NCBI GenBank assembly: GCA_026990385.1
Contig: JALXDL010000039.1
Span: 4,466-68,465, forward strand
Length of the DNA: 64,000 nt
Reading direction: 5' to 3'
DNA from: Desulfobulbaceae bacterium
Lineage (GTDB): Bacteria; Desulfobacterota; Desulfobulbia; Desulfobulbales; Desulfobulbaceae
In this document: positions 5,385 to 62,843 of the stretch, piece after piece
Numbering within the stretch: position 1 is the stretch's first letter
Layout of the letters: the number at the start of each line of letters is the position of its first letter
Notes under the pieces: model-generated
Told to the model about the DNA's origin: nothing
The model's input: only the letters and a program-made list of their open reading frames with translations
Database searches by the model: none
Program-made: the position numbers and the translations under genes

Positions 5385-5546
5385 GGGAACTCCGTACTCT
5401 GCAGGGGAAACAGGGGGATAGGTTCTTCCCGGCCCATGCCGGGCCGGGAGTGTTCGGCTGCGGCAACGGCTTCCGGCCGCTGAATGGGCATTCATTTTTT
5501 TTGCAGTATCCTACAGTGCTGTTCGTTCGCTGTCAAACCGTAAGTG

Positions 5547-5693
5547 GTCACAGGCACCCCATCTGCACGCGCTCAAACCTCCCGATATAGGGGGTGTATC
5601 ATTGCGGAGTCCGATCAGCAGCAGCTGTGCCACCCGGCAACCATTTGCAAGTTTTGTATTAATTCCGAGGAGTTGGATATCCCATGACCGGTT
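5547..5693 (-). repeat. Dispersed ~150-bp intergenic element (modules A + middle + C)
   Basis: Reverse complement aligns with 48117-48254; a 65-nt ungapped block (5553-5617 vs 48184-48248) is 55/65 identical. Confidence 0.85.
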
Positions 5694-5781
5694 ATGTCAG
5701 AGCGGAGGGGACATCGCGCATCCCGCCGTCCGCTGTTCTGCAGGCTTGCCAACTGCCGGACCGGGATGGTATGTTGCTGCC

Positions 5782-5982
5782 ATGAAACTTCTTGTCACCC
5801 TGATCGGACTTGTCTTCATCCTCGAGGGATTACCCTACGTGGCCTCGCCCGAGGCCATGCAGCGCTGGCTCCGGAAACTCTCCGGGATGCCGCCGGCACA
5901 GTTACGCTTCATGGGTGTCATTGCCATGGTCACCGGCTTCCTGCTCTGCTATCTTGGCCAGAGAAGCGGCCTTTTCGGCTGA
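5782..5982 (+). CDS. DUF2065 (YjeT-like) small membrane protein
   Basis: 66 aa; GLVFILEGLPY...P...LRFMG signature. Confidence 0.8.
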   Translation: MKLLVTLIGLVFILEGLPYVASPEAMQRWLRKLSGMPPAQLRFMGVIAMVTGFLLCYLGQRSGLFG

Positions 5983-10558: not shown

Positions 10559-10794
10559 GATTCTGCTCCTTGGGTGAGAGATGGCCTCCCTGCACGGGCA
10601 GGCCGCAACGGATTGCTGGCAGGTCACGTTCCGGAACAGGATAGCCCAGCCGGCCCGTGAGGTCAAACAGAGTGCTTCGGCCAGGCAGGAAAAAATCTTG
10701 CTTTGCCGATTGAGCAATCGCGCGCAATGGGGTATGCAATAGCGATCCGGACCGGCTGAGGCCCCGGTCTGCCTGCCTTGAAGAAGGCGGCCGC

Positions 10795-10843
10795 TTACAC
10801 GTCCTGTATTGATTCGGGATAGTTGCATCTCCCGTGATCGGTT
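10795..10843 (-). repeat. Repeat module A copy
   Basis: Reverse complement AACCGATCACGGGAGATGCAACTATCCCGAATCAATACAGGACGTGTAA is 39/49 identical to 47838-47886. Confidence 0.85.
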
Positions 10844-10900
10844 ACGGCGACCGGGACCGGAACGGCCTGGAACTTGAACGGACTGGAACCTGAATTGAGT

Positions 10901-19700: not shown

Positions 19701-19742
19701 CTGTACGTTGTCACAGGCACCCCGTCTCTGCACGGTCGCGCC
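19701..19742 (-). repeat. Repeat module C copy
   Basis: 19710-19742 reverse complement is 32/33 identical to 38668-38700. Confidence 0.88.
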
Positions 19743-19883
19743 GGGCCGGCCGCTGCCAGTGTCCCTTCCCCGAAATGTCGGCATGGCATAAAAAAGGGTT
19801 GCAATACCTCTCAATTTTAAGTAATTGGTTAATTAATTAAATTATTAAGCATAAGCCAGCTCATCTGGCAAGGAGGGAGTGCC

Positions 19884-30437: not shown

Positions 30438-30463
30438 GGGCGGGTGCAACCGATTGCATGATC

Positions 30464-30599
30464 AATGACTCGTTGTTTTCACATCCTTAAGGCCGTGAAT
30501 GTGGCGCAGGCGCCCCGTACCCGTGCAGGGCCTGCCGGTTCCCGGCAGGCCCCCTGGGCGGGCCGATACGACCGTGCAGAGAAGGGGGTGTCTGCGACA
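30464..30599 (+). repeat. D + inverted C' + spacer + C element
   Basis: D (30464-30490) is 24/27 identical to 59814-59840; C copy CGACCGTGCAGAGAAGGGGGTGTCTGCGACA at 30569-30599; same architecture as 38584-38709. Confidence 0.75.
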
Positions 30600-37979: not shown

Positions 37980-38583
37980 TGTGTGGCTCCTTGTAACAGG
38001 CGGCGGAAAGCGGATGCCTGGTCAGAGATTATTGATGCAGCAGTTTCAAGCGGCTGGCCACTTTTGAAGGCGGAACAGCGGCGGTCGGCGTCCCGGTCGC
38101 GGCGCAGGCCGACGGCATGACCGGCGGGATCGGGTCCGGCCTGTAAAACGAAAATTTTCAGTATATCCCCAAAGAGTTTTCCCTTCAAGGGAAGAAATCG
38201 GGCTGACAGTGTTGGGCGGTAATCACCCCGGCCGGCACGCCTGCTCCGGTCTGCGGACATGCAGTGCATGGAGGCCCTGCCAGCCACGGCTGCAGCACAG
38301 GGTCGCCCCCGGGGCGCGGTTCGGTCCCGTGATACAGGGGCCTGCCTGACCGGGCCTTTCATCGGCAACTGTTCCCTCCTGCGGTATTGAACCCGGGATG
38401 GCGGCGGGTTTCACGGTTTGCCGCGGCTGATGGCGGAATCCGGCCCGGCAGGGATTTTCCCGGTTTTGCGGAGAATACGTACTTTCCTGTTGTCTGGAAA
38501 CCAGAATGAAGTTATACTTTATTTTTTTTCCGAGAAAAGGAGTTTCTGTCCGGCCAGTCGTAACTGATCACAGGGGTACTATA

Positions 38584-38709
38584 ACTCGTTGTTGTCACAG
38601 CCTCGAAACTGTACGTTGGCACAGATGCCCGAATCTGTGCAGGCGCGCCGATCCCGGTATGCGGAGCGGCGCGACCGTGCAGAGGCGGGGTGCCTGTGAC
38701 GGCTTACGG
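38584..38709 (+). repeat. D + inverted C' + spacer + C element
   Basis: 38584-38614 is 25/31 identical to 59818-59848; 38610-38648 resembles 19701-19742; 38668-38700 matches the reverse complement of 19710-19742 at 32/33. Confidence 0.8.
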
Positions 38710-47592: not shown

Positions 47593-48254
47593 CCTGAAAT
47601 GAGCGTTTCACCCATCTGCAAATTGAAAGAGCTATCTGGTCATAAATAATTTCTCCCGTGTCGCAGATGAGTGCCGCCCTCCGGGATTTCCATTTTGTCC
47701 CAATCTGCTTCGCCTTGTGGTGTTTCATGCAGGCAGACTGCAACGAAACATCACAAGACTCGCATTCCGGGGCAAAATGAAAATCTCTTAATTCAGGTAC
47801 AACGCAGATTTTTCGCAGCGCATCACTGGATAAAGGTAACCGATCACGGAATATCCACTTACCCCGAACCAATACAGGGCTTGCAACCGGTTGCACGTCC
47901 TTCAAGGGCTATAGGTGATCAGGGGTGCCGCATATCCGTGCAGGCGCGGTCGTGCGCAGGTCCACGAAAAGACCGGTAGCCCTTTCCGCAGGCGATCGTG
48001 ATCGTACAACGGGGTGAGCCGGTACAGCGAGACCCTGTACGGTGCCCCTGGTCGCTTGCGGGTTTCTGATCGCAAGAGATAGAAGGTGCGCAACGGCGCA
48101 TCGGATGATTCTACGGAACCGATCACGGAATTACCCCGGATCAATACAGGACGTGTAGGCGGTTGCAGGGTGCCGGCTGTGCGTGATCGGACTTCACAAG
48201 GTTACACCCCGTATATTGTGAGATTCGAGCGCGTGCATATGGGGTGCCCTGTGA
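47593..48254 (+). repeat. Cluster of repeat modules upstream of rho (B, B right arm, A, A + middle + C)
   Basis: B at 47593-47622; B right arm at 47775-47806; A at 47838-47886; A-middle-C at 48117-48254. Confidence 0.85.
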
Positions 48255-48501
48255 GCGTTTCCATTCATATTTTTCGACATATCCCGTTGCCGTCTGCCCC
48301 GCCAACGCCCCATCCGGGGCCGGTCCGGCAAACGGATAACGGGAATGCTGACTGTGACCGTCAGCGTTGCTGGCCTGGATACCCGGGCACAGTTTCAGGA
48401 CCGGGAGGGCCGGTCTGCAGCGGCAATGTGGTGGCTTCCGCGCAGAACAGCTCCTTGCGTGTTCATTTTCATTACGATTCCTGAGGAGGAATGATTGCTC
48501 G

Positions 48502-59813: not shown

Positions 59814-59848
59814 AATGACTCGTTGTTGTCATACCCTTAACCCTGTAC
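59814..59848 (+). repeat. Repeat module D copy
   Basis: AATGACTCGTTGTTGTCATACCCTTAACCCTGTAC; matches 30464-30490 (24/27) and 38584-38614 (25/31). Confidence 0.8.
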
Positions 59849-59887
59849 ATACCCCGGAAGGTGTCGGCATAACCGCAGAAGAACATC

Positions 59888-62574: not shown

Positions 62575-62592
62575 ACAGCTCCTGTCCGAACC

Positions 62593-62843
62593 GGATATCC
62601 CGTGATCGGTTGCGTTCCTGCCGGCAGGGCCTGCGGCAGGGGACACCGTCCTTTCGATGATCCCACGTGATGGCCGGAGGGCGGCCAGAACCGATAAATT
62701 TTTTTTCTCCTTCAATTGCAGGGAAAAACACGATTTAATGAGATTGAGACCTGAATTGCGCGTTGCGCCCGTCTGCAGCACCTTGCCGTGCTGCTTATGG
62801 AATTTTTTTATCGTTTGCAGATGGTTGAAACGCTCCATTCAGG
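62593..62843. repeat. Partial module A followed by an inverted pair of B modules
   Basis: A on minus strand at 62593-62611 (AACCGATCACGGGATATCC); B on plus strand at 62750-62779; B on minus strand at 62814-62843. Confidence 0.8.

Follow-up and report, generated by a model that had tools for sequence, protein, structure and literature searches.

Most bacterial genomes contain MITEs, of which only a small share match catalogued families (PMC11602168). Those with a known parent IS, such as MITECca01 of Cardinium (parent of the IS982 family), the MITEEc1/ERIC-like elements with IS630 and the Correia/NEMIS elements of Neisseria, are short, non-coding elements of high copy number that are mostly intergenic, are bounded by terminal inverted repeats (TIRs) and flanked by target-site duplications (TSDs), and rely on a transposase in trans (PMC9769881, PMC11602168). 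The repeat family described here resembles these elements in the features just named, but differs from MITECca01, MITEEc1 and Correia in being tied to IS66 and in having an 8-bp TSD. The inverted repeats of IS66 elements start with GTAAGCG (PMC12888890), and the trap-captured IS66 elements ISPpa5a and ISPpa7 have direct repeats of 8 bp (PMC3281130, Table 2).

The repeat was noticed in a 64-kb window, by which we mean the whole stretch of DNA analysed (C39:4466-68465), from a genome of 3.75 Mb in 117 contigs with 62% G+C (G000). The original prediction of a non-autonomous mobile element (MITE) is borne out by TIRs, 8-bp TSDs and a copy number of ~190, together with a subfamily that amplified recently and a congener in which one of the sites is empty. 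From these sequence features it is very likely that the repeat is a MITE family with IS66-family ends and an 8-bp footprint.

Limits, layout and copies of the element

Aligning the reverse complement of 5547-5693 with 48117-48254 reproduced the colinearity that had been reported for these two intervals, with 81% column identity. The 7-nt deletion noted in the A module appears in the pairwise alignment as a 7-column gap in the copy at 48117-48254, and the best ungapped 65-nt block is identical at exactly 55/65 positions, as first measured. A single-sequence nhmmer search of the genome returned 75 matches, and the iterated profile (four iterations) identified 192 distinct loci, 97 of them near full length, with a family total of 25,067 bp (0.67% of the genome). 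The two copies first noticed are therefore a small part of the family; their similarity goes far beyond chance, as the same sequence recurs at these 75 places and 192 loci.

When 43 good copies were aligned with their flanks, column conservation, ~90% within the unit, fell to the background level precisely at GTAACCGATCACGGG... on one side and ...CCCTGTGACCGCTTAC on the other, giving boundaries that are sharp across copies, with a GTAACC... start and a ...GCTTAC end. This drop at both boundaries identifies the unit as a discrete 157-bp element. The consensus, GTAACCGATCACGGGATATCCAATTACCCCGAATCAATACAGGACTT-GTAAGCGGTTGCAGGGTGCCACAGCTGTGCGTGATCGAACTTCACAATTATACACCCCGTATATCGGGAGGTTCGAGCGCGTGCAGATGGGGTGCCCTGTGACCGCTTAC, is non-coding and represents a multi-copy element with a length of ~157 bp. 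Its two outer ends form inverted repeats (GTAACCGATCAC-GGG at the left, GTAAGCGGTCACAGGG at the right), and the terminus recurs a third time at position 47; the TIRs (GTAACCGATCAC-GGG... / ...CCCTGTGACCGCTTAC) reach the length of at least 10-15 bp that marks a MITE. The consensus thus comprises an IRL-like terminus, a linker of ~31 nt and a near-palindrome of ~111 bp (positions 47-157), in which two IRR-like termini stand face to face (GTAAGCGGTCACAGGG...loop...CCCTGTGACCGCTTAC). Since positions 47-157 are near-palindromic, the profile also matches the reverse strand. The modules A and C, which had been seen separately as well as joined, are the left part (IRL-like terminus and linker) and the right-arm part of this one element. 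Their separate occurrence was confirmed at 46 loci with the 5' part only and 47 with the 3' part only; the separate modules are truncated copies and members of sister subfamilies.

Full two-module copies are present in relatives from the same family (G015, G024), and 111-bp palindrome-only forms in other families of the order (G031, G032, G025). No convincing TSDs were found for a palindrome-only form moving independently in this genome. A blastn search of a plasmid collection with the consensus gave no match, and among species-representative genomes the 18-mer ACCGRTCACGGGATATCC gave 28 single matches in unrelated taxa, about the chance expectation, none of which was scored by the element profile.

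The window contains nine members or fragments of the family. The true limits of copies 1 and 2 are slightly wider than first reported, and both are full-length members of the main subfamily. Copy 1 spans 156 bp at 5540-5695 on the minus strand (nhmmer profile 129 bits, E 1e-37). Read on that strand, its left (IRL-like) TIR ATAACCGGTCATGGGA at 5695-5680 is followed by the linker, by a degenerate inner TIR at about 5648-5633 between linker and loop, and by the right (IRR-like) TIR at 5555-5540, whose plus-strand sequence is GTAAGTGGTCACAGGC. Copy 2 spans 148 bp at 48115-48262 on the plus strand (nhmmer 127 bits, E 5e-37), with its left TIR GGAACCGATCACGGAA at 48115-48130, its inner TIR GTAGGCGGTTGCAGGG at 48155-48170 and its right TIR CCCTGTGAGCGTTTCC at 48247-48262; its ends and TSD are decayed, and the 7-nt deletion lies in its left module. 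It is located upstream of rho, as first noted, within the 1.1-kb coaE-rho spacer. The same spacer contains a third main-subfamily copy, 155 bp upstream of copy 2, with its left TIR GTAACCGATCACGGAA at 47836 and the 5' two-thirds only (47836..47959, plus strand, model 3-146, nhmmer E 7e-14).

Two further full-length members belong to a sister subfamily (sub0). The one at 38560..38707 (plus strand, sub0 profile 154 bits, E 6e-47) retains the two-module architecture, with TIRs GTAACTGATCACAGGG / GCCTGTGACGGCTTAC and TSD GGCCAGTC / GGCCAGTT, and the one at 30445..30599 (plus strand, sub0 profile E 2.4e-16) is degenerate. The remaining pieces are a truncated, solo A module that extends from the left TIR across the linker to ~12 nt into the inner TIR (10787..10845, minus strand, nhmmer E 2e-12, model 11-72), a solo C module, that is, a right-arm/TIR fragment (19701..19743, minus strand, nhmmer E 1e-7 to 5e-6 with three profiles), a solo left-TIR fragment GCAACCGATCACGGGATATCCG (62589..62622, minus strand) and a weak, short piece of linker from the sister subfamily (59815..59850, plus strand, sub0 profile E 4e-4).

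Target-site duplications and insertion history

To look at the insertion footprint, we compared the 8 nt directly outside each end in the 74 copies with both ends located. The two flanks were identical at 8/8 positions in 21/74 copies, at 7/8 in 12 and at 6/8 in 13, so that 46/74 matched at 6/8 or better; controls shifted by 1, 2, 8 or 12 nt reached this level in 0-2 copies. In the per-position flank profile the matching block has exactly 8 positions. The duplicated 8-mers are diverse, which shows that they arose by duplication and do not reflect a conserved target motif.

A congener, G002, has an empty site for copy 1 with a single GTCAAACG. It reads ...TGTCAAACG-GCAGACGACAT..., while the window reads ...TGTCAAACC(element)GTCAGAGC-GGAGGGGACAT.... 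The first copy of the duplication in the window, GTCAAACC at 5532..5539, matches the second, GTCAGAGC at 5696..5703, at 6/8 positions, the latter being decayed at 2/8. In the comparison with congeners, the coaE-rho spacer measures ~830 bp here and ~435 bp in G001 and G002; G002 has no element in it, and G001 only a 14-bit trace.

Members of the main subfamily are identical to their own consensus at a median of 86% (range 70-94%), and copies 1 and 2 are old, decayed insertions. The sister subfamily has the same architecture and includes at least 7 copies that are 97-100% identical to their consensus and lie in unrelated flanks (in G000, young copies are at C47:47300-47454, C47:55661-55818 and C109:88422-88578). 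The four complete sister-subfamily copies listed all have perfect TSDs (GTTGCTCT, GTTGTGAT, CTGTTTCC and GTTTATCT); three are at least 97% identical to the consensus, and the CTGTTTCC copy 89%. Such near-identical young copies with perfect TSDs indicate that the superfamily was recently active in this lineage, and evidence of insertion comes from both the empty site in G002 and the young copies in unrelated flanks. Five contig ends (C72_R, C37_L, C112_R, C62_R and C13_L) break inside the young sister subfamily. Separately, the contig ends C39_R, C40_L, C4_R, C93_R and C94_L have another ~150-nt sequence in common (...AAATTTTTTCTTTAGCCTAAATCCTGCAATTGGCAATTTTGCC...), which probably borders a multi-copy unit collapsed in the assembly, e.g. 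an rRNA operon or another IS; C39_R lies ~3.7 kb past the right edge of the window.

The element tips are GTAAGCGG... at the right and inner TIRs and GTAACCGA... at the left TIR, and show the GTAA(G)CG of IS66; the 8-bp TSD is likewise that of the IS66 family. Tips of the form GTAA(G/C)CG together with an 8-bp duplication constitute the IS66-family signature, on which we assign the element to IS66 at family level with high confidence. The original prediction had listed a match to the ends of a known IS or to an Rfam family as counting against it. The first of these proved to be the case in the form of IS66-family ends, which lowers the novelty of the repeat while confirming its reading as a MITE; an Rfam match was not found.

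The footprint and tips also bear on the suggestion that the repeat is REPIN-like, i.e. a REP hairpin doublet spread by a RAYT (IS200/IS605-like Y1) transposase. REPINs do not have the combination of TIRs and TSDs, and go with a Y1 transposase that has REPs on either side. The element does share with REPIN/RAYT systems the look of a palindromic doublet, its 3' two-thirds being a long imperfect palindrome, and a dispersed intergenic spread, and the genome has two weak PF01797 (Y1_Tnp) genes. However, it has exact 8-bp TSDs, where REPINs and Y1 transposases make none, and its tips are the GTAA(G/C)CG of IS66. Neither Y1-like gene (C62:23-343 and C74:56210-56530) is flanked by the element, the sole copy on C62 lying at the opposite contig end, and the element adjoins no RAYT gene. 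These points make a REPIN origin extremely improbable. The two Y1 (PF01797) matches themselves score ~35 bits and are unrelated to the MITE.

Candidate transposases

Two kinds of IS66 element were compared with the MITE. The congener G001 and the genome G015 contain intact classic IS66 elements with PF03050, which are 2,446-2,450 bp long and begin with GTAAGCG; 5/6 of the copies checked in these two genomes have perfect 8-bp TSDs. The classic IS66/IS679 type (e.g. ISPpa5a, ISPpa7, ISPsk01) shares with the MITE the GTAAGCG start of the TIR and the 8-bp TSD, whereas the MITE is 157 bp long, has no ORF, differs in the TIR past the tip and has a third, internal TIR copy. At L077 92-116 in G001, a classic IS66 copy directly adjoins a MITE-like terminus (GTAAGCGCTCACAGACTTCTGATGT followed by GTAAGCGCC...), a junction suggesting that the IS inserted within or next to the end of an older element.

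G001 also contains a second IS type, in four copies that are at least 99.96% identical, 2,336 bp long, with the TIR GTAACCCCTCACAGGG and perfect 8-bp TSDs (L091 1332-3667 in G001; the subgroup is also seen on L097, L099 and L102). This type-2 IS encodes a DruA/DUF4338-like protein of 291 aa (PF14236, E 2e-40) and a 509-aa transposase with PF03050 and DUF6444. Against NCBIfam NF033517 transpos_IS66, the type-2 transposase scores 236.6 bits with a cut-off of 180 bits. The DruA/DUF4338-like ORF (~300 aa, PF14236 E 1e-36 to 1e-40) lies upstream, in place of tnpA/tnpB, and accompanies the type-2 transposase in 4/4 genomes checked (G001, G090, G140, G151). We found no earlier description of this pairing of DruA-like/DUF4338 and IS66 transposase in the searchable literature. 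Homologues of the type-2 transposase are present in 10/151 genomes sampled from the order, and the nearest named relative, on plasmid pDCAR1 of Solidesulfovibrio carbinolicus, is annotated as 'IS66 family transposase'. The motif GTAAGCGGAGCCAGGG in the G001 type-2 transposase ORF was considered as a terminus and discarded, as it lies inside the coding region; comparison of the four copies gave the true ends.

Type-2 elements are ~2.3 kb long and have the ends GTAAC(C/T)GATCAC(A)GGG / GTAAGC.ATCACAGGG. The ends read GTAACCGATCACAGGG in G151, G140 and G014, GTAACTGATCACGGGG and GTAAGCTATCACAGGG in G145 (TSD GAACCGTC), and GTAACCTCTCACAGGG and GTAAGCCCTCACAGGG in G074. They agree at 15-16/16 nt with the left terminus of the MITE (GTAACCGATCAC-GGG; GTAACTGATCACGGGG in the young subfamily) and with its right and inner termini (GTAAGCGGTCACAGGG). 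The transposase in G145 and G074 is preceded by the GTAAC-type end and followed by the GTAAGC-type end, and from this IRL/IRR asymmetry the MITE can be read as one IRL-like end, one IRR-like end and an extra inverted IRR-like copy. G001 has at least 40 full-length MITE copies, and its own 157-bp MITE at L095 2526-2682 (TSD GGCTTGCC) has a left TIR, GTAACCCCTCACGGGG, that matches the resident IS of G001. The type-2 subgroup therefore has the same termini, asymmetry and 8-bp TSDs as the MITE, but it is autonomous and protein-coding, and only the ~16-20 nt tips are common to both. As the similarity is confined to these termini, simple deletion of the IS does not account for the MITE. In G140, TIR-bounded pieces of 192 bp and 534 bp (L099 972-1163 and 972-1505, GTAAGCGATCACAGGG / GTAACCGATCACAGGG) lie beside a truncated type-2 IS; these nested pieces are probably local MITE derivatives.

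Autonomous IS66 elements with MITE-like TIRs are found in the relatives G001, G145, G151, G140 and G074 and not in this assembly. A tblastn search here returned nothing below E 0.5 for the type-2 transposase, and a genome search gave 0 matches. Nor does any contig end run from the TIR into shared non-MITE sequence, as a collapsed type-2 IS would; only MITE copies were seen there. The assemblies of 11 other MITE-bearing relatives likewise gave 0/11 for the type-2 transposase. Given these absences, the pairing of MITE and IS rests on TIR identity and one co-occurrence, in G001. On balance, the shared termini favour the type-2 IS66 subgroup as the specific partner.

Alternatively, the MITE may have been mobilised not by a type-2 enzyme but by the resident classic three-gene IS66, or by a transient plasmid or phage transposase. 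This assembly contains no IS66-type transposase other than the classic one (tnpC fragments on C64, C106 and C77), and the classic type is multi-copy here, C64 and C106 being 97.9% identical; fragments lie at the contig ends C64, C106, C77 and C112, with a protein 67-79% identical to the classic TnpC of G001. The young MITE subfamily also moved recently with no type-2 transposase in the assembly, and the other MITE-bearing relatives that were searched fit the same picture. Against this, the classic IS end matches the MITE ends over the first 4-7 nt only, compared with 15-16/16 nt and the same IRL/IRR asymmetry for the type-2 ends, and several MITE-bearing relatives also have no classic IS66. 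We therefore regard this alternative as unlikely. The resident classic IS66 was also rejected as the parent, since its end (GTAAGCGCCCTGTTAACC / GTAAGCGCCACATCAACC) has only the GTAAGCG tip in common with the MITE.

With a type-2 enzyme as the favoured partner, transposition would proceed as follows. A DDE transposase supplied in trans would bind the outer termini and cut at the GTAA tips, the element would be inserted into a staggered 8-bp cut, and repair would leave the 8-bp duplication. The likeliest enzyme would be that of the relatives' ~2.3-kb IS with its DruA/DUF4338-like ORF and its DUF6444 + DDE_Tnp_IS66 transposase. Two parts of this explanation are inferred: the identity of the mobilising transposase, and the choice between conservative and replicative movement. 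The spread of the young subfamily without a cognate transposase would imply either cross-mobilisation by a distantly related IS66 enzyme or a transient source on a plasmid or phage that is missing from the assembly. The three-terminus architecture (an IRL-like end and an inverted IRR-like pair, the 111-bp palindrome) is kept across subfamilies and genera that have drifted to ~70% identity. It might be required for transposition by the IS66 subgroup, although we consider this rather doubtful when taken jointly with the above reading of how the young subfamily was supplied. Such an architecture could act as a cruciform or offer two binding sites, and the DruA/DUF4338-like accessory protein might be what recognises it.

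Palindrome, genomic context and significance

The palindrome also raised the possibility of a repeated structured ncRNA, or of a hairpin that regulates at the RNA level, as a terminator or stabiliser, and whose fold is under selection. The consensus RNA hairpin reaches -65.8 kcal/mol (RNA parameters), and the copies are intergenic and lie beside genes. Yet Rfam returned no match, either at the gathering threshold for the whole window (only a tRNA elsewhere) or at E<=1 for copy 1. The arms of one copy are no more complementary to each other (30.63/36) than to those of unrelated copies (30.61; permutation 951/2000), and single changes that break pairs outnumber compensated ones by 171 to 9, so that no sign of compensatory substitution is seen. 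There is no strand bias relative to genes either: among co-directional flanking genes the orientation is the same in 23 cases and opposite in 20, and overall 49 copies are on the plus and 48 on the minus strand. No T-tract terminator is found at the element. A selected RNA fold is thus very improbable, and the hairpin-forming palindrome is inherited element architecture.

Genes were called with our own codon-usage ORF caller, which gave 2,688 genes and 83.5% coding sequence, both approximate. Against a genome coding fraction of 0.835, the mean coding overlap of family members is 0.13, and 73/97 full copies overlap coding sequence by less than 10%. Divergent, tandem and convergent spacers hold 27/43/12 copies, near the length-based expectation, with no significant bias.

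Copy 1 lies between divergent genes, as originally described. On the torD side is a gene for a TorD/NarJ-family chaperone (PF02613) that starts at 5495 on the minus strand; on the other side, an 88-aa ORF starting at 5784 is followed by mgtE. The DUF2065 label given to this ORF was not recovered by Pfam at E<=1e-5. A sigma-70-like promoter match for the torD-like gene, TTGACA-17-TAGGAT at 5508-5536 (minus strand), abuts the insertion site of the MITE. Its -35-like TTGACA overlaps the TSD at 5532..5539, and the hexamer is kept in the congener G002. A second promoter-like site, at 5746-5775 on the other side of copy 1, is outside the element. Both promoters are consensus matches only, and the arrangement is consistent with copy 1 being a tolerated insertion between two divergent promoters.

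The family is a common type of genome parasite and does not amount to a novel sort of system, although it seems to be undescribed itself; no description of an IS66-linked MITE family was found in the searchable literature. One MITE superfamily accounts for most of the scattered 'mosaic repeat modules' of the window and the genome, as well as for five contig breaks in the assembly. It also points to an IS66 subgroup in which a DruA/DUF4338-like gene replaces tnpA/tnpB. The family represents a clean case of a MITE family tied to IS66, whose transposition chemistry remains poorly understood, and its 157 bp with defined ends provide a compact substrate for assaying IS66 transposition in vitro or in vivo.
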